NCBI RefSeq assembly: GCF_964213995.1
Contig: NC_135803.1
Span: 121,086,001-121,150,000, forward strand
Source: Mustelus asterias
Taxonomy: Eukaryota
Direction of reading: 5' to 3'
Length of the DNA stretch: 64,000 bases
Numbering within the stretch: position 1 is the stretch's first letter; each line of letters opens with the position of its first letter. The position numbers were made by a program, and so were the translations under genes. Below are positions 11,807 to 63,774 of this stretch, piece by piece. The notes beneath the pieces were generated by a model, which saw only the letters and a program-made list of their open reading frames with translations, was not told where the DNA came from and did no database searches.

Positions 11807-13495
11807 AACATAAGAACATAAGAAATAGGAGCAGGAGTAGGCCATCTAGCCCCTCGAGCCTGCCCCGCCATTCAATAAGATCATGGCTGATCTGACGTGG
11901 ATCAGTACCACTTACCCGCCTGATCCCCATAACCCTTAATTCCCTTACCGATCAGGAATCCATCCATCCGCGCTTTAAACATATTCAGCGAGGTAGCCTC
12001 CACCACCTCAGTGGGCAGAGAATTCCAGAGATTCACCACCCTCTGGGAGAAGAAGTTCCTCCTCAACTCTGTCTTAAACCGACCCCCCTTTATTTTGAGG
12101 CTGTGTCCTCTAGTTTTAACTTCCTTACTAAGTGGAAAGAATCTCTCCGCCTCCACCCTATCCAGCCCCCGCATTATCTTATAAGTCTCCATAAGATCCC
12201 CCCTCATCCTTCTAAACTCCAACGAGTACAAACCCAATCTCCTCAGCCTCTCCTCATAATCCAAACCCCTCATCTCCGGTATCAACCTGGTGAACCTTCT
12301 CTGCACTCCCTCCAATGCCAATATATCCTTCCTCATATAAGGGGACCAATACTGCACACAGTATTCCAGCTGCGGCCTCACCAATGCCCTGTACAGGTGC
12401 ATCAAGACATCCCTGCTTTTATATTCTATCCCCCTCGCAATATAGGCCAACATCCCATTTGCCTTCTTGATCACCTGTTGTACCTGCAGACTGGGCTTTT
12501 GCGTCTCATGCACAAGGACCCCCAGGTCCCTTTGCACGGTAGCATGTTTTAATTTGTTTCCATTGAGATAGTAATCCCATTTGTTATTATTTCCTCCAAA
12601 GTGTATAACCTCGCATTTCTCAACGTTATACTCCATTTGCCATATCCTCGCCCACTCACTCAGCCTGTCCAAATCTCTCTGCAGATCTTCTCCGTCCTCC
12701 ACACGATTCACTTTTCCACTTATCTTTGTGTCGTCTGCAAACTTCGTTACCCTACACTCCGTCCCCTCCTCCAGATCATCTACATAAATGGTAAACAGTT
12801 GCGGCCCGAGTACCGATCCCTGCGGCACACCAGTAGTTACCTTCCTCCAACCGGAAAAACACCCATTTATTCCGACTCTTTGCTTCCTGTCGGACAGCCA
12901 GTCCCCAATCCACTTTAACACACTACCCCCAACTCCGTGTGCCCTAATCTTCTTCAGCAGCCTTTTATGGGGCACCTTATCAAACACCTTTTGGAAATCC
13001 AAAAACACCGCATCCACCGGTTCTCCTCCATCAACCGCCCTAGTCACATCTTCATAAAAATCCAACATGTTCGTCAAGCACGACTTTCCCCTCATGAATC
13101 CATGCTGCGTCTGATTGATCGAACCATTTCTATCCAGATGCCCTGCTATCTCCTCTTTAATAATGGATTCCAGCATTTTCCCTACTACAGACGTTAAGCT
13201 GACCGGCCTATAGTTACCCGCCTTTTGTCTCCTTCCTTTTTTAAACAGCGGCGTAACATTAGCCGTTTTCCAATCAACCGGCACTACCCCAGAATGCAAC
13301 GAGTTTTGATAAATAATCACTAACGCATCCACTATTACCTCTGACATTTCTTTCAATACCCTGGGATGCATTCCATCCGGACCCGGGGACTTGTCCACCT
13401 TCAGTCCCATTAGTCTACCCAGCACTGCCTCTCTGGTAACATTAATCGTATTAAGTATTTCTCCTGCTGCCAACCCTCTATCGTTAATATTTGGC
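11807..13495 (-). mobile_element. Young 5'-truncated CR1 LINE
   Basis: (aagaacat)n tail, uninterrupted RT ORF, 7-bp TSD atgtttg at 11800-11806 and 13496-13502. Confidence 0.95.
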
Positions 13496-13497
13496 AT
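11902..13497 (-). CDS. CR1 ORF2 fragment, reverse transcriptase without endonuclease (531 aa)
   Basis: KSPGPDG, NYRPVSLTS, QHGF, GVPQGSVLGP, FADD, LEYCVQYW motifs. Confidence 0.9.
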   Translation of the reverse strand: MPNINDRGLAAGEILNTINVTREAVLGRLMGLKVDKSPGPDGMHPRVLKEMSEVIVDALVIIYQNSLHSGVVPVDWKTANVTPLFKKGRRQKAGNYRPVSLTSVVGKMLESIIKEEIAGHLDRNGSINQTQHGFMRGKSCLTNMLDFYEDVTRAVDGGEPVDAVFLDFQKVFDKVPHKRLLKKIRAHGVGGSVLKWIGDWLSDRKQRVGINGCFSGWRKVTTGVPQGSVLGPQLFTIYVDDLEEGTECRVTKFADDTKISGKVNRVEDGEDLQRDLDRLSEWARIWQMEYNVEKCEVIHFGGNNNKWDYYLNGNKLKHATVQRDLGVLVHETQKPSLQVQQVIKKANGMLAYIARGIEYKSRDVLMHLYRALVRPQLEYCVQYWSPYMRKDILALEGVQRRFTRLIPEMRGLDYEERLRRLGLYSLEFRRMRGDLMETYKIMRGLDRVEAERFFPLSKEVKTRGHSLKIKGGRFKTELRRNFFSQRVVNLWNSLPTEVVEATSLNMFKARMDGFLIGKGIKGYGDQAGKWY

Positions 13498-13999
13498 GTT
13501 TGGTTGTATTAGGTGAAGATACCCATATTGGGAAAGTATGTACTTTAGCCTACAGTCAGCCGAGATGTAATCAACACTATCTAGTTGAAATTTTAAATGC
13601 GTACTACATTTGGCTCAGATCAATTTTTTTTTTTAACCATATTTAATACTCATTTACAAACTGTTCACACCACCAAAGTGGGCACGGCAAGTTTCCACCA
13701 AATATAACCATTCAAGAAGGCTTTTCAAATTGAGCTTTTTTTTTAGCACGCAGGAATGTTTTTAAATTTTCTTAAATATGAAAATAAATTTACTTTACTA
13801 TGAAACTGATATGTGCAATCAATGAAACTAGTAAATGGTTTAGTTTGTTTTCAAGTCACTGTCAGGTTAGATACTTATAAAATATTTATTATGATTTTAA
13901 ACACCCTTTATAGTCGTATTATTAAAACTCATGAGTTCCCACTTTTAAGTGCATCAATAGAGATATTTTTTGTAATGCAAGTAACACAAGTAAATGATG

Positions 14000-18997: not shown

Positions 18998-19538
18998 ATA
19001 CTAGTAGAAAATATGCGATTATTAGTCCAAACCTACATCATGTCAAGTAACGCACACACAATTGGGATATGGTTTTCTCTTATTGGGAATCATTCATTGT
19101 AGAGTATTCAAATCTCATTAATCCACTGTGTCAGAACATTTTGAACTATTTGTAACTCATCACAAAATGATTTCCTGGAAGGTTTTATTGGCCACAAAGA
19201 AAATTACACACTCGCAACATCTGCAGTATTACAACAGGAAAAGAACACTTTTGTGGCCTAATGTTCAAACCAGTTCTCATGGATTTGGAAGATAGAAATC
19301 TGCTGACCAGTTGGTTACTTATTTGTTCATGATGATTAAAGCCATATTAGCTAACGACATCTCAAAGAGTTTAAAAAAAAATCTTTTGACCCACGCCTTG
19401 TTTTAATTTAATCTCCAAACTAAATGGGCTGGATTATCCAGTTTTAGAACATAGAACATAGAACATTACAGCGCAGAACAGGCCCTTCGGCCCACGATGT
19501 TGCACCGACCAGTTAAAAAAAAACTGTGACCCTCCAAC

Positions 19539-22358
19539 CTAAACCAATTTCTTTTCGTCCATGAACCTATCTACGGATCTCTTAAACGCCCCCAAACTAG
19601 GCGCATTTACTACTGATGCTGGCAGGGCATTCCAATCCCTCACCACCCTCTGGGTAAAGAACCTACCCCTGACATCGGTTCTATAACTACCCCCCCTCAA
19701 TTTAAAGCCATGCCCCCTCGTGCTGGATTTCTCCATCAGAGGAAAAAGGCTATCACTATCCACCCTATCTAAACCTCTAATCATCTTATATGTTTCAATA
19801 AGATCCCCTCTTAGCCGCCGCCTTTCCAGCGAAAACAATCCCAAATCCCTCAGCCTCTCCTCATAGGATCTCCCCTCCATACCAGGCAACATCCTGGTAA
19901 ACCTCCTCTGCACCCTCTCCAAAGCCTCCACATCCTTCCTGTAATGTGGGGACCAGAACTGCACACAGTACTCCAAGTGCGGCCGCACCAGAGTTGTGTA
20001 CAGTTGCAACATAACGCTACGACTCCTAAATTCAATCCCCCTACCAATAAACGCCAAGACACCATATGCCTTCTTAACAACCTTATCTACTTGATTCCCA
20101 ACTTTCAGGGATCTATGCACACATACACCTAGATCCCTCTGCTCCTCCACACTATTCAAAGTCCTCCCGTTAGCCCTATACTCAACACATCTGTTATTCC
20201 TACCAAAGTGAATTACCTCACACTTCTCCGCATTAAACTCCATCCGCCACCTCTCGGCCCAACTTTGCAACCTGTCTAAGTCTTCCTGCAAACTACGACA
20301 CCCTTCCTCACTGTCTACCACACCACCGACTTTGGTGTCATCAGCAAATTTGCTAATCCACCCAACTATACCCTCATCCAGATCATTAATAAATATTACA
20401 AACAGCAGTGGCCCCAAAACAGATCCCTGAGGTACACCACTTGTAACCGCACTCCATGATGAATATTTACTATCAACCACCACCCTCTGTTTCCTATCCG
20501 CTAGCCAATTCCTGATCCAATTTCCTAGATCACCCCCAATCCCATACATCTGCATTTTCTGCAGAAGCCTACCATGGTGAACCTTATCAAACGCCTTACT
20601 AAAATCCATATATACCACGTCCACTGCCTTGCCCCCATCCACCTCCTTGGTCACTTTCTCAAAAAACTCAATAAGGTTAGTAAGGCACGACCTACCTGCC
20701 ACAAAACCATGCTGACTATCACCTATCAATTCATTACTCTCCAAATAACTATAAATCCTATCCCTTATAATTTTTTCCAACATCTTGCCGACAACAGAAG
20801 TGAGACTCACCGGTCTATAATTCCCGGGGAAGTCTCTGTTCCCCTTCTTAAACAATGGGACAACATTCGCTAACCTCCAATCTTCTGGTACTATACCAGA
20901 GGCCAACGACGACCTGAAGATCAGAGCCAGAGGCTCTGCAATCACTTCTCTTGCCTCCCAGAGAATCCTTGGATAAATCCCATCCGGACCAGGGGATTTA
21001 TCTATTTTCAGACCCTCCAGAATATCCTGCACATCCTCCTTATCAACTGTAATACTGTCTATTCTACTCCCTTGCAACCCAGTGTCCTCCTCAGCTATAT
21101 TCATGTCCCCTTGCGTGAACACCGAAGAGAAATATTGGTTCAATGCTTCACCAATCTCCTCCGGTTCCACACATAACTTCCCTCTGCCATCTATAACTGG
21201 CCCTAAACTTGCCCTAACCAACCTTCTGTTCTTGACATACCTATAGAACGCCTTAGGATTCTCTTTAACCCTATCCGCCAAAGTCTTCTCATGTCCCCTT
21301 TTAGCCCTTCTAAGCTCGCTCTTCAACTCCCTCTTAGCCAATCTAAAGCTTTCTAGTGCACTACCCGAGTGCTCACGTCTCATCCGAACATAAGCCTCCT
21401 TTTTCTTTTTAACCAACAACGAAACTTTTTTGGTGCACCACGGTTCCCTAGCCCTACCAATTCCTCCTTGCCTGACAGGGACATACCTATCACAGACTCG
21501 CAGTAGCTGCTCCTTGAAAAAACTCCACATGTCGGACGTTCCCAGTCCCTGTAATCTCCTAGTCCAACCTATGTTTCCTAATTCTCTCCTAATAGCCTCA
21601 TAATTACCCTTCCCCCAGCTAAAACCACTGGCCCGAGGTTCATGCCTATCCCTTCCCATCACTAAGGTGAACGTAACCGAATTGTGGTCACTATCACCAA
21701 AATGCACACCAACTTCCAAGTCTAGCACCTGGTCTGGCTCATTTCCCAGCACCAGATCCAATATAGCCTCACCTCTAGTTGGCCTGTCTACATACTGAGT
21801 CAAAAAACCTTCCTGCACGCTTTGAACAAAAACTGACCCCTCTAACGAGCTAGAGCTATAACAATTCCAGTCAATATTAGTCAAGTTAAAATCCCCCATA
21901 ACAATTGCCCGATTACTTTCACTCCTAAGCAGGATTGACTCCGCAATCCTTTCCTCAACCTCTCTAGAACTTTTAGGAGGTCTATAAAAGACTCCCAACA
22001 GGGTGACCTCTCCTCTCCTATTTCTAATCTCCGCCCATACTACCTCAACAGATAAGTCCTCATCAAACCTCCTCTCTGACACTGTGATACAATCTCTGAC
22101 CAATAATGCTACCCCTCCCCCTCTTCTACCTCCTTCCCTACTTCGACTAAAACATTTGAACCCCGGGACCTGCAGCATCCATTCCTGCCCCTGCTCTATC
22201 CATGTCTCTGAAATAGCCACAACATCGAAGTCCCAGGTACTGATCCACGCTGCAAGTTCACCCACTTTATTGCGAATACTCCTGGCATTGAAGTATACAC
22301 ATTTCAAACCCTGCTCCACCCCACCTCTGCAATGCCGTGCATTGCAGTCCCCATCCAT
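19539..22358 (-). CDS. CR1 ORF2: AP-endonuclease plus reverse transcriptase (939 aa)
   Basis: YFNARSI, ISETW, YRPP, GDFN, LDLVL, SDHN (endonuclease); QHGF, PQGSVLGP, FADD (RT). Confidence 0.96.
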   Translation of the reverse strand: MDGDCNARHCRGGVEQGLKCVYFNARSIRNKVGELAAWISTWDFDVVAISETWIEQGQEWMLQVPGFKCFSRSREGGRRGGGVALLVRDCITVSERRFDEDLSVEVVWAEIRNRRGEVTLLGVFYRPPKSSREVEERIAESILLRSESNRAIVMGDFNLTNIDWNCYSSSSLEGSVFVQSVQEGFLTQYVDRPTRGEAILDLVLGNEPDQVLDLEVGVHFGDSDHNSVTFTLVMGRDRHEPRASGFSWGKGNYEAIRRELGNIGWTRRLQGLGTSDMWSFFKEQLLRVCDRYVPVRQGGIGRAREPWCTKKVSLLVKKKKEAYVRMRREHSGSALESFRLAKRELKSELRRAKRGHEKTLADRVKENPKAFYRYVKNRRLVRASLGPVIDGRGKLCVEPEEIGEALNQYFSSVFTQGDMNIAEEDTGLQGSRIDSITVDKEDVQDILEGLKIDKSPGPDGIYPRILWEAREVIAEPLALIFRSSLASGIVPEDWRLANVVPLFKKGNRDFPGNYRPVSLTSVVGKMLEKIIRDRIYSYLESNELIGDSQHGFVAGRSCLTNLIEFFEKVTKEVDGGKAVDVVYMDFSKAFDKVHHGRLLQKMQMYGIGGDLGNWIRNWLADRKQRVVVDSKYSSWSAVTSGVPQGSVLGPLLFVIFINDLDEGIVGWISKFADDTKVGGVVDSEEGCRSLQEDLDRLQSWAERWRMEFNAEKCEVIHFGRNNRCVEYRANGRTLNSVEEQRDLGVCVHRSLKVGNQVDKVVKKAYGVLAFIGRGIEFRSRSVMLQLYTTLVRPHLEYCVQFWSPHYRKDVEALERVQRRFTRMLPGMEGRSYEERLRDLGLFSLERRRLRGDLIETYKMIRGLDRVDSDSLFPLMEKSSTRGHGFKLRGGSYRTDVRGRFFTQRVVRDWNALPASVVNAPSLGAFKRSVDRFMDEKKLV

Positions 22359-22409
22359 GCATCCCTCACTTTCAGCCCCACTACTCAGGATCCCTCCCCC
22401 CCCCCCGAA

Positions 22410-23339
22410 TCAGTTTAAACCTCCCTGCATGGCCTTAGCAAATTTACCCCCCAGGATATTGGTCCCCTTCTGATTAAGGTGTAGACCATCCTTCTCATAG
22501 AGGTCACACCTTCCCCAGTACGAGCCCCAATTGCTTAAGTACCTGAACCCCTCCCTCCTGCACCATCCCCTCAGCCATGAATTCAAACCTTCCCTCTCCC
22601 TATTCCTCTCTAAACTATCCCGTGGTACAGGCAAGAGTCCAGAGATAACCACTCTGTCAGTCTTGGCCTTTAGTTTCCACCCCAACTCCATAAATCCCTG
22701 CCTAATATCCCCTTCCCCTATCCTCCCTATGTCGTGTGTCCCCACATGTACAATAACTTGTGGTTTATCTCCCTCCCCCCTAAGAGTCCTGAATACCCTG
22801 TCAGACACATCCCGGACCCCAGCCCCTGGTAGGCAACACACCAACCCTGAGTCCCTACCTTTAGTTCCGACCCTCCTATCTGTCCCCTTAATTGTGGAGT
22901 CCCCAATCACAAGGCCCAGTCTTTTACAGCCCTTAACCACCTGAGCTTTCTCACTCGGCTCACCCCCAGAGATCTGCTCTCTATGCTCAGTTGATTCCTC
23001 CTCAACTGTAGCCTCCAGCACCGAAAACCTATTATGGAGGGGAACCGCCCCAGGGGATTGTCTTCCCGATTGCTTCTTACCCCTCCTCCTGGCATTGACC
23101 CAAGCCTCATTTCTAGGAGTTACTATTTCTCTATAACTCCTATCAACTTCCACCTCCGCCTCCCGAATTATGCGGAGTTCCTCTACCTCCCCCTCCAGCT
23201 CCTTTACACGCTCCTCCAGAAGCTGCAATCTAATGCACTTCTTACAACTAAAATCTCCTGAAACACTACTGGATTTCCTCACCACATACATCCCACAGGA
23301 GATGCAGCATACTGCCTGAACTGCCATCCCTGAAGCCAT
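22410..23339 (-). CDS. CR1 ORF1p: zinc finger, coiled coil and SGNH-type esterase (309 aa from MASGMAVQ)
   Basis: CISC...CKKC, heptad LEERVKELEGEVEEL, PLHNRF, IGDS, PGA, GTHD, DGLHLN; first ATG at 23339. Confidence 0.92.
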   Translation of the reverse strand: MASGMAVQAVCCISCGMYVVRKSSSVSGDFSCKKCIRLQLLEERVKELEGEVEELRIIREAEVEVDRSYREIVTPRNEAWVNARRRGKKQSGRQSPGAVPLHNRFSVLEATVEEESTEHREQISGGEPSEKAQVVKGCKRLGLVIGDSTIKGTDRRVGTKGRDSGLVCCLPGAGVRDVSDRVFRTLRGEGDKPQVIVHVGTHDIGRIGEGDIRQGFMELGWKLKAKTDRVVISGLLPVPRDSLERNREREGLNSWLRGWCRREGFRYLSNWGSYWGRCDLYEKDGLHLNQKGTNILGGKFAKAMQGGLN

Positions 23340-23535
23340 TACCAGCAAGAAAAAAAGAAAACAAAAAAAAAAAGAAAACAAAAAACAAAAAACAAAAAGA
23401 AAACAAAAAAAAAAAGAAAACAAAAAAACTTCCCCACACTTATAATTAGGTTAGAGGAGGATGGAAGGGTGGGATCCTCTACCAGTGTAGAGGATCGGGT
23501 ATCTCCTCTGCACCAATTTATAGGGCTAGGGGCCC

Positions 23536-23938
23536 TATTAAATCCAAACAATTGATATTAAATCCAAACAACTGATATTAAACCCAAACAACTGATATTA
23601 AACCCAAACTGATATTAAGTCCAAACAACTGATGTTAAACCCAAACAACTGATATTAAATCCAAACTGATATTAAATCCAAACAATTGATATTAAATCCA
23701 AACAACTGATATTAAACCCAAACAACTGATATTAAACCAAAACAACTGATATTAAATCCAAACAACTGATATTAAACCCAAACTGATATTAAGTCCAAAC
23801 AACTGATATTAAACCCAAACAACTGATATTAAATCCAAACTGATATTAAATCCAAACAATTGATATTAAATCCAAACAACTGATATTAAACCCAAACAAC
23901 TGATATTAAACCCAAACTGATATTAAGTCCAAACAACT
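23536..23938. repeat. Tandem array of 21 units of 17-20 bp at the CR1 5' end
   Basis: tattaaa(t/c)ccaaac(aac)tga units with a roughly 7-unit higher-order period. Confidence 0.95.
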
Positions 23939-34044: not shown

Positions 34045-37000
34045 AGGGATGAGGTCCTAAAAGCAGAATACAGGGAGAAAGTTAAGAAATCGGACCTCAA
34101 AGGTAGTGATCTCAGGATTACTACTGGTGCCACGTGCTAGTCAGAGTAGAAATGACAGGAGACATTGGATAAATACGTGGCTGTAGAGATGGGTGTCAGG
34201 GGGAGGGTTTCAGATTCCCAGGGCATTGGGACCGGATCTGGGGGAGGTGGAACCTGTACAAATTGGAAGGGTACACCTGCGCAGGACTGGGACTGATGTG
34301 CCGGGCGACTGTTTGAGGGGGATGGGAACCTATGTAAGGAGTCAGAGAAAGAGGGAGCAAGGACAAAAATAAAAGGTAGAAAAGGAAATTTAAAAAGTGA
34401 TAGGCAGGGAAACCATGGACAAAGTTCAAATAGGGCTATAGAGAAAAATATTGGGAGCAGGGCAAACAATGTTAAAAAGACAAGCTTCAAGGCTCTGTGC
34501 CTTAATGCACGGAGCATGTGCAATAAAGTGGATGAACTAATCACACAGATAGATGTAAACGGGTACAATATAATTGGGATTACTGAGACATGGCTGCAGG
34601 GTGACCAGGGTTGGGAATTGAATGTCCCAGGGTATTCAATATTTAGGAAGGACAGGCATAAAGGAAAAGGTGGTGGAGAGGCACTGCTGGTTAAAGAGGA
34701 AATTAACACAATTGCGAGAAAGGATATTAGCCCTGACAACCTGGAGTCTGTATGGGTAGAGTTGAGACATACCAAGGAGCAAAAAACATAAGTGGGTGTC
34801 ATATATAGACCCCCAAACTGCAGTGGTGATGTTGGGAATGGTATTAAACATGATATTAGAGATGCATGTGATAAGGGAATATCGGTGATCATGGGTAATT
34901 TTAATCTGCACATAGATTGGGCAAATCAAATTAACCACAATGCCGTAGAGGAGGAGTTCCTGGAGTGTATATGGGTTGGTTTTCTTGACCAATATGTGGA
35001 GGAACCAACTAGAGAGCAGGCCATCTTAGACTGGGTACTGTGTAATGTGAAGGGAATCATTGCCAATCTAGCTGTACGAGACTCCTTGGGAATGAGCGAC
35101 CACAACATGATAGAATTTTTTATCAAGGTGAAGAGTGAAGTAGTTTATTCGGAGACTAGGGTGCTGAATCTTAATAAAGGAAGTTATGAGGCATGAGTTG
35201 GCCTTGATAGATTGGGGAGAGTTACTTAAAGAAATGATAGTGGATAAGCAATGGTAAAATTCAAGGAACACACGGGGGAACTGCAGCAAATATTTATTCC
35301 TGTCTGGCACAAAAGCAAAATGGGTAAGAGGACCAATCCATGGCTTACAAAGGAAATTAGAGAGAGTATCTGATTTAAGGAAGAAGCATACAGATTGGCC
35401 AAGAAAAATAATAGGTCTGAGGATTGGGAGCGGTTTAGAATTCAGCAAAGAAGGACCAAGGGATTGATTAAGAAGAGGAAAATACAGTATGAAAGTAAGC
35501 TTGCAGGAACATAAAGACTGACACAAAGAGTTTCTATAGATACGTGAAGGGAAAGAGATTGGTGAAGACAAATGTAGGTCCCCTACAGACTAACGGGGGA
35601 AAGTATAATGGGGGACAAAGAAATGGCCGAGCAACTGAATACATACTTTGGTTCTGTCTTCACAAAAGAGGACACAAATCAAATGCCAGAAATGTTGGAG
35701 AATGCAAGATTTAGTGAGAGGGAAGAACTGAGGGAGATCAATATTAGTAGAGAAATGGTGCTGGGAAAATTGATGAGATTGAAGGCAGATAAATCCCCAG
35801 GGTCTGATAGTCTACATCCCAGAGCACTTAAGGAAGTGACTCTAGAAATAGTGGATGCATTGGTGGTCACCTTCCAGAATTCTATAGACTCTAGAACTGT
35901 CCCTGCAGATTGGAGGGTAGCGAATGTCACTCCAATATTCAAAAAGGGAGGTAGAGAGAAAACAGGGAATTATAGACCAGTAAGCTCAACATCGGTAATG
36001 GGGAAAATTCACGAATCCATTATCAAGGACTTTATAGCAGAGCATTTAGAAAGCAGTGGCAGGATCAGACAGAGTCGGCATGGATTTATGAAGGGGAAAT
36101 CATGCTTGACAAATCTGTTGGAATCCTTTGAAGATGCAACTAGTAGAGTTGACAAGGGGGAACCAGTAGATGTGGTATATTTGGACCTTTAGAAAGCGTT
36201 TGACAAAGTCTCGCACAAGAGATTTTCGTGCAAGATTAAAGCGCATGGGATTGGAGGAAGTGTATTGAGATGGATAGAAAACTGGTTGGCAGAGACGAAA
36301 CAAAGAGTAGGAGTTGATGGGTGCTTTTCAAATTGGCAGGCAGTAACTAGTGGTGTGCCACAGGGATCGGTGCTAGGACCCCAACCATTCACAATATATA
36401 TTTATGATTTGGTTGAGAGAACAAAATGTAACATGTCAAAGTTTGCAGATGATACCAAGTTGGGTAGGAGGGTGAACTGTGATGAGGATGCAGAGATCCT
36501 TCAGAATGATCTGGACAGATTGGGTGTGTGGGTTAATCAATGGCAGATGCAGTATAATTTGGATAAGTGTGAGGTTATTCACTTTGGAAGCAAAAACAAG
36601 AGGCAGATTACTACCTGAATGGCTGTAAATTGGGAGAGGGGAGCATGCAGCAGGAACCTGGGTGTCCTTGTGCACCAGTCATTGAAGGCGGTAAAGAAGG
36701 CAAATAGCATGTTGGCCTTCATTGCAAGAGGTTTCGAGTAGAGAAGCATGGATGTGTTGTTGTAATTATATAGGGCCTTGGTGAGGCCACACCTAGAGTA
36801 TTGTGTGTCGTTTTGGTCTCCTTTTCTGATGAAGGATGTTCTTGCTCTTGAGAGAGTGCAGCAAAGGTTTACCAGGCTGATTCCGGGAATGGCGGGGCTG
36901 ATGTATGAGGAGAGATTGAATAGGTTAGGATTGTTTTTGCTGGAGTTCAGATGAATGAGGGGGGATATCATAGAGACTTATAAAATTCTAATAGGACTAG

Positions 37001-37345
37001 ACAGGATAGACGCAGAGAGGATATTCTCAATGATGGGACAGTCCAGAACCAGGGGTCACAGTCTGAGGATTCAGGGTAGACCATTTAGGACAGAGGTCAG
37101 GAGACATTTCTTCACCCAAAGAGTGGTGAGCCTGTAGCATTCATTACCACAGGAAGTAGTTGATGCCACAACATTGAATTTATTCAAGATATAGCACTTG
37201 GGGCGAATGGGATCAAAGGTTATGGGGAAAAAGCAGGATTAGGCTATTGAGTTAGATGATCAGCCATTATCGTAATGAATGGCAGAGCAGGCTTGAAGGG
37301 CCAAATGGCCTCCTCCTGCTCCTATCTTCTGTGTTTCTATGTTTA
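34045..37345 (+). pseudogene. Degenerate CR1 LINE: ORF1 C-terminus plus disrupted ORF2
   Basis: Consecutive ORF fragments GITETW, YRPP, SDHN, RHGF, PQGSVLGP, FADD, FTQRVV with stops and frameshifts; tail tgtttctatgttt. Confidence 0.93.
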
Positions 37346-37999: not shown

Positions 38000-40030
38000 T
38001 ATCTTTAAATCTCCTCATCTCCAGCTTTTCTCAAAAGTAAAAATTTGATTTCATATCTTCATAGCTGAAGTTCCTCATCTTTGGAACCATTCTCGGAATC
38101 TTTTCTGTGTCCTCCCTAATACTTTCACATTCTTCCCAAAGCACAATGCCCAGAACTGGATGCAGTGATCTAGCCGAGACTAACTAATATCGTGTATAAA
38201 TTGAACATAACCCCCTTGCTCTTGTACTCTATGCCCCTATTAATAAAGCCTTTGATACTGTATATTTTATGAACCGCTCTCTCAACCTGTCCGACCATCT
38301 TTAATAAGTTATATACATATACACCCAGGTCCCGCTACTCCTGCACCCCATTTAGAGTTATACCCTGTTTATTGTCAATTCATATTCTGTCTACCAAAAT
38401 GAATCTCATCACATTTCTCCACATTGAACTTCAGCTGTCATGTGTCAGCCCATTCCACCCACTTGTCTATGTCCTTTTGTAATTCTACACTATCCGCCCC
38501 ACAGTTCAGAATACTTCCAAGTTTTGTATCATCGGCAAATTTTGAAACTATACCAAGAGTCTCAGTCATTAATATATATCAGGACAAGTAAGGGTCCCAA
38601 AACAGACCTCTGGGGAACTCCACTACAAGTCTTACTCCAGCCCGTAAAACATCCATTAACCACTAGTCTGTATTTCCTGCCTGCATTTCCTGTCACTTAA
38701 TCAATTTCATTTCTATGTTGCTACTGTTCCTTTTATTCCATGAGCTCTAATTCTGCGTACAGGTCTGAACTATATCAAATGCTTTTTGGAAGTCCAAGTA
38801 TGGTTATATCAGCAACTTTACCCTCATCAACCTCTTCTGTTACCTCTTCAAAAACTGTTACAAGTTAATTAAATATGATTTTCCCTTGAGAAATCCATGC
38901 TGGTTTTCCTTAATTAATCCTTAGCATTTGTCCATGACTATTACTTCTGTCCCAAATTATTGTTTCTCGAAGTCTCCCTACCACTGGAGTTAAATTGACT
39001 GGCCAATAGGTGGTGTGCTTCTATTTACAACCTTTTGTGAACAAAGATGTATCATTTGCAATTCTCCGGTCCTCGGGCAAAACCACTGAGTCTACGGAAG
39101 ACTGAAAAATTGCATCTGCAATTTCCACTCTTGAGTTCTCAGTATCCTTGTGTGCACCTCATCCATTCCTGGTGACTTATCCACTTTATCCAATACCTTT
39201 TCATCAATTTTAAAACCTTCAAATGTCTGAATTACCTCCCTTTTCACCATGATCCTGGTAGCATCTTCTTCCTTGGTAAAGTCAGGCGCAAAGTATTAAT
39301 TTAACACCTCATCCATGTCCTCTGCCTCAATGCAGAAACTCCCCTTTTTGATTCCTACTCAGACCTACTACTTTTACACAATTTTACCACCCTTTTACTA
39401 TTTACATGCCGATAGAAAACTTTGGAATTCCTTTTCATATTGGCTGCCAGTCTTGTTTCATAGTCCCTCTTTGTTTCTCTTATTTGCTTTTGCATCCATA
39501 ACCCTGGCACCAGGGAGACAACTCACCATCTTGGATTCACATTTATGGCCAAAGAAATACCTATCTTTTCCCTTAACTATAATATCACTTACAACTGTTG
39601 CTCTTCCAGTCTTCCTTGTACAGTTGAACCAATCGTGGTTCCATGGACTTGGCTCTGGCTGCACACCTCAGATGAACCATCACTCACATTAATATTCAGA
39701 ACTGAATACTGGTTGAAGAATGCAATGCACTCACAGGGCCCCTGCAAACCTGCCTATTCCTTTGTGACTGCCTGCTGGTCACTCATTCCCTCTGTCCAGC
39801 ACACTCTTCAGCTGTGTGTTGGCCATATTTATAAATGTGCTATCCACAAAGCTCTTAATGTCCACGGATTCACCACAGAGACTTTAGTTGCTGCTCTGAA
39901 CCCAGAGGTCAAGCTATTGCAGGTGACAACACTTCCTGCAAAAATGGTTTTCCAGGACACAAGAAGAGTCCTGGAGTTCCCATGTAGCACAGGATGTGCA
40001 CTCTAGAGGTTGGAGCAGCTCTGCCATTCC
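38000..40030 (-). pseudogene. Old CR1 remnant with ORF1 N-half joined to mid-ORF2
   Basis: MAELLQPLECTSC at 40026, VSCLPGARV near 39500, then decayed RT sequence at 38000-39480. Confidence 0.75.
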
Positions 40031-62991: not shown

Positions 62992-63770
62992 TTACATAGA
63001 AATCTAGAAAATAAAAGCAGGGATAGGCCATTCAGTCCTTCAAGCCTGCTCTGCCATTCATTTTGATTATGGTTGATCATCAAATTCAATATTCTGATCC
63101 TGCCTTCTCCCCATATCCCTTGATCTCTTTAGCCCCAAGAGCTATATTTAATTTCTTCTTGAAATCACACAATATTTTATCCACAACTACTTTCTGTGGT
63201 AGTGAATTCCACACATTCACCACTCTCTGGGTGAAGAAATTTCTCCTCACCTCAGTCCTAAAATGTTTACCTCTTATCCTCAAACTATAACCCCTAGTTC
63301 TGGACTCCCCCACCATCGGGAACATTCTTTCTGAATCTGCCCTGTCTAATCCCGTTAGAATTTTATAAGTCTCTATGAGATCCCCTCTCACTCTTCTAAA
63401 CTCCATTAAATATAATCCTAACCAACTTAGTCTCTCCTCATTTAACAAACCTGTCATCCCAGAAATCAGTCTGGTAAACGTTTGCTGCACTCCCTCTATA
63501 GCAAGGACATCCTTCCTTAGATAAGGACACCAAAACTGCACACAATACTCCAGGTGTGGCCTCACAATGCCCTGCAAAATTGCATCTCTATTCCTATATT
63601 TAAATCCTCTCGTTATGAAGGCCAACATACTATTTGCCTTCTTCATTGCTTGCTGTACCTGCGCACTTACTTTCAGTGACTGATGCACAAAGATGCCAAG
63701 GTCTCGCTCAGTATCCATCTCTCTCAATTTACAGTCATTCAAATAATAATCTGTCTTCCCATTATTGCTA
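62992..63770 (-). mobile_element. CR1 3' fragment
   Basis: ERDLGIFVHQSLK...HLEYCVQFW...FFTQRVVNVWN. Confidence 0.92.
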
Positions 63771-63774
63771 CCGA

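Follow-up and report, generated by a model that had tools for sequence, protein, structure and literature searches.

The CR1 retrotransposon family described here very probably makes its endonuclease/reverse transcriptase (RT) as an ORF1–ORF2 fusion protein, through programmed -1 frameshifting on a U_UUA_AAC heptamer at the end of ORF1, to judge from its sequence. Synthesis of the copying enzyme by frameshifting appears likely because shark-type and bird-type CR1 elements end ORF1 with the same slippery sequence and share a G motif. The copy of the family found in the window – the whole stretch of 64,000 nucleotides of DNA that was analysed – itself carries a one-G expansion and is out of the family's -1 phase.

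The CR1 element in the window

The element is a nearly full-length, young CR1-type LINE on the minus strand (23535–19446). At least two types of 5'UTR exist in the family; the window copy has the 3' part of one of them (23340..23535, minus), with an expanded U-rich tract, and its 5' end appears to be cut. ORF1 (22410..23339, minus) encodes 309 amino acids followed by TGA, with N-terminal Cys pairs, a predicted SGNH/GDSL esterase domain at residues 168–292 (PF13472, E 1.1e-07) and a C-terminus reading G-L-N. The ORF2 frame (19539..22409, minus) is stop-free over 956 codons and specifies first an APE endonuclease (PF03372, 39–242) and then an RT (PF00078, 522–739). At its 3' end, the element has a short 3'UTR (19446..19538, minus) consisting of a U-run and terminal short (ATGTTCT)-type tandem repeats, which recur in sister copies, and no poly(A). 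A short 3'UTR ending in short tandem repeats is presumably a CR1 hallmark. Protein homologues of the window ORF1 are named from cartilaginous fish and birds, the closest named ones being from cartilaginous fish. By its ORF1 esterase, its APE–RT ORF2 and its 3' end, the element is thus classed as a CR1 LINE of the esterase-ORF1 type. Canonical vertebrate CR1, dominant in shark and bird genomes, pairs an esterase ORF1 with an APE–RT ORF2 in the same way, and poly(A) is attributed to Zenon only within this LINE group, in the sections of a 2026 CR1 survey that treat these points (PMC13343379).

Several other repeats surround or accompany the element. Directly adjoining its cut 5' end is an array (23536–23938) in which a 20-bp unit is repeated about 21 times, with higher-order periods of 57 and 77 bp, and short contigs related to this array occur at high depth in one public run. 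A second, older CR1 of another family lies on the plus strand (34073–37188); a deletion has removed its heptamer and stop, and its G motif remains. There are also many further 5'-truncated ORF2 fragments of CR1/L2 type, among them those at 11953–13536, 38096–39346 and 63122–63772 (all minus). Elsewhere, at L159 (G000:C1:44397400-44407399), full-length copies of the family form a head-to-tail array, about 4 kb apart, with the 3' end of one joined to the 5'UTR of the next.

The ORF1/ORF2 junction

On the minus strand, the heptamer TTTAAAC (22413..22419) abuts the ORF1 stop and lies in the X_XXY_YYZ register of ORF1, read GGT TTA AAC. A 6-nt spacer (22407..22412), composed of the stop TGA (22412–22410) and TTC, separates it from the G tract G11-A-GGG-A (22391..22406, with G11 at 22406–22396). 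This arrangement, an in-frame T_TTA_AAC just before the ORF1 stop with a G tract six nucleotides on, had been singled out in the preliminary description and is confirmed. It is a real feature, far from chance: the combination of heptamer, stop, spacer and GGGG occurs at one site in the window (as three overlapping matches), against 0.05 expected from shuffles.

In the window copy, the -1 frame is closed after 12 codons by a TAG (22381..22383), and ORF2 is in frame with ORF1 behind a single TGA, with 17 sense codons preceding the ATG at 22358 (22356..22358). This is the first ATG of the ORF2 frame in the window family, and its position is not kept in other families. Both frame assignments agree with what had been described for G11, and the accompanying prediction – that ten Gs would lead the -1 frame into ORF2 – is borne out by the full-length G10 copies checked, in all three of which no stop interrupts the -1 frame over 959 codons, counted from the heptamer. 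The computed ORF1–ORF2 fusion of a G10 copy has 1266 aa.

Ten Gs are also the norm of the family. Searching the 3.68-Gb genome with a 23-nt junction pattern gave 2429 exact matches (reversed control, 0), and tabulation of the G-run in sister copies, as had been proposed, yielded 2664 junctions with fixed anchors on both sides. The run is of G10 length in 2002 of these and of G11 length in 340; G10 is thus modal and the spacer phase is not random. A hand count of the first 100 listed junctions gives 76 with G10, 16 with one G more, 3 with two, 1 with three and 2 with four more, and 2 with one fewer, and about 25% of family copies differ from G10. The window copy, 99.7–99.8% identical to the three full-length G10 copies, therefore represents a 1-nt slip from the family norm, one of the readings originally offered for it. 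Among five public runs with contigs spanning the G-run, four (X13, X3, X5, X4) have one base fewer; the fifth, X1, has a low-depth contig that matches G11 and may itself come from the source of the window DNA. In a further run, X2, the contig ends within the G-run. G11 at the window locus may be either a genomic slip or an assembly slip.

Conservation of the heptamer across CR1 families

To sample junctions blindly, a pattern was placed in the upstream DGLHLN motif (5655 matches versus 10 in the control) and the first 30 loci were taken; these form five clusters at 80% identity, and copies within families are not independent. TTTAAAC stands at the end of ORF1 in 28 of the 30, the other two differing by one synonymous change each, so the heptamer is conserved in related CR1 elements. 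The preceding codon ends in T in every one of the 30 (GGT 11, GAT 11, CGT 7, GCT 1), and the residue it encodes varies among Gly, Asp, Arg and Ala. Background codon use, computed from few elements and mostly from the window family, puts TTA at 0.11 of Leu codons, AAC at 0.24 of Asn codons, CGT at 0.04 of Arg codons, and GGT and GGG at 0.30 and 0.43 of Gly codons. On these codon patterns, the heptamer site is conserved beyond amino-acid need; some of the constraint on the LN ending may still come from the protein.

A separate set of 30 loci, chosen by the heptamer, is uninformative on its conservation. Genome-wide, heptamer-stop-N7-GGGG-N3-GGG has 22,335 matches, versus 8 in the reversed control. 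When the first base must be other than T and the Leu and Asn codons are left free, this frame gives 916 matches, versus 423 in its control, and the CR1 matches in the first 30 loci of this pattern look like single-base decays of the same families.

Bird-type relatives show the same ending. A metagenome scan gave 54 bird-type loci, 17 of them with a readable ORF1 end, which bears the heptamer in 13 and a decayed form of it in 4; the 11 bird-type junctions analysed below are those with an exact heptamer at the projected ORF1 end. At the protein level, LN is the C-terminus of 27 of 35 ORF1 relatives matched in one protein search, of 74 of 120 mostly bird-named relatives, and of 54 of the 72 representatives (among 150 listed) whose C-terminus is covered, the other 18 not ending in LN. 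A T-ending codon before LN is absent in 1 of 54, which is a weak test, positions -6, -7 and -10 being similar. Five further ORF1 representatives end in QGN: these are distant esterases (P0250, P0252, P0261, P0281, P0288), known from protein alone, whose ending fits a G_GGA_AAC slippery site.

A motif scan of prokaryotic genomes returned 53 loci, 52 of them without CR1 similarity. L203, a contig in a Metamycoplasmataceae bin that only the motif brought up, carries a distant CR1-like element (32% endonuclease identity). Its heptamer lies exactly at the ORF1 stop and precedes a run of eleven Gs, and the element is out of phase. A CR1-like protein, P0011, is named from Pseudomonas aeruginosa. The CR1-like sequences L203 and P0011 in bacterial records are most likely host contamination. 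No relative was found in a scan of viral contigs.

Reading phase, linkers and start codons

The phase between ORF1 and ORF2 was compared over 68 unique junctions, namely 30 heptamer-selected, 26 unselected and 11 bird-type junctions and one from the window family. The start of the endonuclease is recognisable in 50 of them and falls in the -1 phase in 42, in the 0 phase in 5 and in the +1 phase in 3; the 8 junctions out of the -1 phase are read as decay. From junction to endonuclease, the linkers measure 33–81 codons, and the linker frame is open in -1 in 38 of 42 junctions, in 0 in 6 and in +1 in none. The endonuclease could be scored in five bird-type junctions, every one of which is in -1 and open. 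On the 5' side of the heptamer, a stop mostly closes the -1 frame within about 5 codons, and 37 of 43 listed cases have no AUG there. In the family mode and in other families, though not in the G11 copy of the window, ORF2 is thus open in -1 from the heptamer and has no conserved start of its own.

The phase and the start codons also bear on the most serious alternative, which we consider improbable: that ORF2 is translated separately by termination–reinitiation, from an AUG 51 nt past the stop or from a non-AUG codon over the stop, with LN a protein constraint. L1 ORF2 tolerates loss of its AUG, a point in favour of such a route. Human L1 and silkworm SART1 resemble CR1 in having a bicistronic LINE RNA, and translation of ORF2 in dependence on that of ORF1 is their documented mode, as described in the relevant part of the source (PMC2881922); unlike what is proposed for CR1, however, they make a separate ORF2p and have no slippery site, whereas CR1 has a fixed -1 phase and many linkers without AUG. 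In the window family, CUG overlaps the UGA stop and codon 20 of the -1 frame is an AUG, which lies 51 nt past the stop, so that an in-frame AUG precedes the endonuclease there as it does in four of the five open bird-type linkers. Yet AUG is absent before the endonuclease in 28 of the 38 open -1 linkers and, where present, lies at codon 3, 4, 20, 22 or 25, and the codon overlapping the stop is CUA rather than CUG in most families. Reinitiation, moreover, needs no fixed -1 phase, no frame open all the way back to the heptamer and no fixed synonymous bases within it.

The G-rich motif and RNA structure

In 23 representatives, hand-picked from 73 junctions as the best preserved of each cluster, every sequence has G at +11 to +14 and at +19 and +20 after the heptamer, and conservation fades past about +27. 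Without picking, GGGG at +11 to +14 with GG at +19 and +20 occurs in 50 of the 68 junctions, versus 1 of 955 positions of the same phase within ORF2. The G10 form, unlike G11, keeps the register of this pattern, with G at +11 to +14 and +18 to +20 as in other CR1 families; the latter have no long G-run, most having four to six Gs, and keep the heptamer. In the -1 frame, three of the conserved Gs occupy third codon positions, and the residue specified by the codon that finishes at +11 is variable (Gln, Lys, Arg, Met, Leu, Ser or Gly), which points to a constraint acting on the RNA.

Since no conserved stem-loop or pseudoknot was found, a classical structured 3' stimulator appears to be absent. 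Consensus folding gave an RNAalifold energy of 0 in four alignments and z-scores from -2.2 to +1.6, in models without pseudoknots. A local stem-loop was considered as the stimulator and rejected (z -1.14, not conserved). No long-range partner of the post-shift sequence was shared across 13 elements (the window element and the 12 of 20 fetched loci with a pattern match), and no pairing of the junction with the 3' end of the element was found in the window copy or at the junctions of 12 of the 20 fetched loci. Within the type A 5'UTR, a C-rich stretch (23460–23500, minus), about 1.05 kb away, is complementary to the junction G tract (22380–22410, minus); the predicted duplex (-38.5 kcal/mol) overlaps and competes with a local 10-bp hairpin, is limited to one 5'UTR type, and is absent in an intact copy with the other 5'UTR. 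As to these 5'UTRs, L013, L015, L019, L026 and L028 have near-identical coding regions to L010, L012, L016 and L023 and unrelated 5'UTRs, one of which is a tandem-repeat type; the occurrence of two unrelated 5'UTRs with near-identical coding regions suggests recent promoter swapping.

The preliminary description proposed a G-quadruplex as the stimulator, a proposal that survives in part. A quadruplex is predicted for the window family, two-tier with G10 and three-tier with G11 (G11-A-GGG: -40.8 kcal/mol, versus -6.9 without the quadruplex), and the window junction, with a G4Hunter score of 1.92, ranks in the top 0.2% of the scoring windows along the element. Prediction extends to only 7 of the 23 representatives, however, and the conserved feature is a G motif in the primary sequence, from +11 onwards. 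A UGGGA in the junction, which we take to match the calicivirus reinitiation motif, was rejected as a motif of that type: in CR1 it follows the stop, and no more than 15 of the 23 have U at +17.

Variation in G-run length within the family

The copies of the window family that differ in G-run length could, in principle, be translated in different ways. The preliminary description had suggested that the length of the run switches between frameshifting and readthrough; in its fullest form, G10 copies would frameshift, G11 copies would fuse the two ORFs by readthrough of UGA aided by a three-tier G-quadruplex, and both would propagate. G11 is indeed common (340 of 2664), ORF2 is intact in 34 of 38 G11 copies, as it is in 29 of 37 G10 copies, a three-tier quadruplex is predicted for G11-A-GGG, and a synthetic quadruplex gave 1.5% readthrough in vitro in the experiments of that kind reported by PMC3919603. 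When 40 G10 and 41 G11 copies (the window copy included) were compared over ORF2, however, G11 copies were interleaved with G10 copies and formed no clade. Both groups have the same divergence (mean substitutions, 2.6 and 2.9); of 20 shared variants, 16 are found in both, with 2 confined to G11 and 2 to G10; same-G pairs number 26 of 68, versus 33.5 by permutation; two rare variants are common to the window copy and a G10 copy; and both 5'UTR types are found with G11. This absence of a clade and sharing of variants indicate that G11 arises repeatedly from G10 sources, by copying slippage or assembly error, and with other families lacking a long G-run, a length switch is very unlikely.

Least credible of all is a frame change in the RNA by polymerase slippage on the G-run, with no ribosomal slip: the run does often slip (about 25% of copies are not G10, and the 3'UTR U-run ranges from 8 to 15 among copies), yet most families have four to six Gs and keep the heptamer, and slippage in the run cannot fuse the ORFs because the ORF1 stop lies upstream of it.

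Of 75 full-length copies sampled, 63 have an intact ORF2, and substitutions number about 3 per copy, so the family appears to be very young and is probably still active.

A model for ORF2 synthesis and its precedents

The recoding proposed in the preliminary description thus probably stands, as -1 frameshifting at the heptamer; the readthrough switch attached to G11 is not supported. Under this model, most ribosomes would stop at UGA and release ORF1p, and a minority would slip back by one base, with tRNA-Leu in the P site and tRNA-Asn in the A site, so that much more ORF1p than ORF2p would be made, in the manner of Gag-Pol. The likely 3' stimulator is the G motif. As for how it would act, we give roughly an even chance to the preferred mode, in which a protein or a component of the ribosome binds it as a linear motif at the entry channel for mRNA; a G-quadruplex is a somewhat less probable mode and may contribute in the G-richest families, the window family included; and the small share of probability that is left falls to a role through the encoded Gly-x-Gly peptide alone. 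Whether canonical CR1, which is the dominant LINE in most vertebrates, carries a single cassette that predates the shark–bird split – U_UUA_AAC, stop, 10-nt spacer and a linear GGGG-NNN-GGG, with a G-rich stimulator working via a bound protein or a G-quadruplex and not via a hairpin or pseudoknot – is, in our judgement, evenly balanced.

Frameshifting of this kind has precedents. U_UUA_AAC is listed among the most shift-prone heptamers in the part of a frameshift review that ranks them (PMC5009743). The retroviral gag-pol and coronavirus 1a/1b systems, as covered there, resemble the proposed CR1 arrangement in combining X_XXY_YYZ with the fusion of a structural protein to a polymerase; CR1, by contrast, is a LINE, and no conserved stem-loop or pseudoknot was found in it. 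The arterivirus PRRSV, in the corresponding section (PMC5009743), has a protein-stimulated frameshift with a linear CCCANCUCC motif 11 nt downstream. CR1 likewise has an unstructured, base-biased motif at about the same distance (10-nt spacer), which is a positional analogy only; its motif differs in being G-rich, and protein binding is putative. In a synthetic system, with results as summarised in the source, G-quadruplexes promoted -1 frameshifting on UUUAAAC at about 7% in vitro, with an optimum spacer of 6–8 nt and four G tracts required (PMC3919603). The heptamer is the same as in CR1 and the start of the G-run in the window family fits this optimum, whereas a quadruplex is predicted in just 7 of the 23 CR1 representatives. 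Interrupted G-rich repeats are stated to give no stimulation without ligand (PMC12710887, in the relevant part). Natural use of G-quadruplexes for productive frameshifting was anticipated, not known, according to the passage on the subject in the 2016 review (PMC5009743).

Among LINEs, the Dictyostelium APE–RT elements TRE5-A and TRE3-A are stated to need a -1 frameshift for ORF2 (PMC5911963), and by this precedent -1 frameshifting is not new to LINEs. These elements differ from CR1 in their unrelated ORF1, their targeting of tRNA genes and their amoeba host, as given in the same part of that source (PMC5911963).

For CR1 itself, the main text of the 2026 survey contains neither 'frameshift' nor 'overlap' nor 'translation' and gives no mechanism of ORF2 translation (PMC13343379). 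Full-text searches returned no report of CR1 frameshifting among the papers they covered; the early chicken and turtle CR1 papers (1997–2003) may mention overlapping ORFs or frameshifting.

Implications for CR1 biology

The mode of ORF2 translation is known for few LINEs, and none was found for CR1 in the literature searched. If the -1 frameshift is true, the active CR1 enzyme would be an ORF1–ORF2 fusion, and annotations of CR1 ORF2 that start at the first Met would be wrong; 'intact' CR1 copies would then have to be scored by junction phase, and engineered CR1 assays would have to keep the junction. The many intact copies of so young a family, with ORF2 open in 29 of 37 G10 copies, are plentiful natural test material, and the G motif at +11 is a compact candidate for a natural G-quadruplex or protein-bound stimulator. 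If the cassette reading also holds, it would provide a natural G-rich frameshift stimulator and a Gag-Pol-like esterase–RT fusion in a vertebrate LINE.
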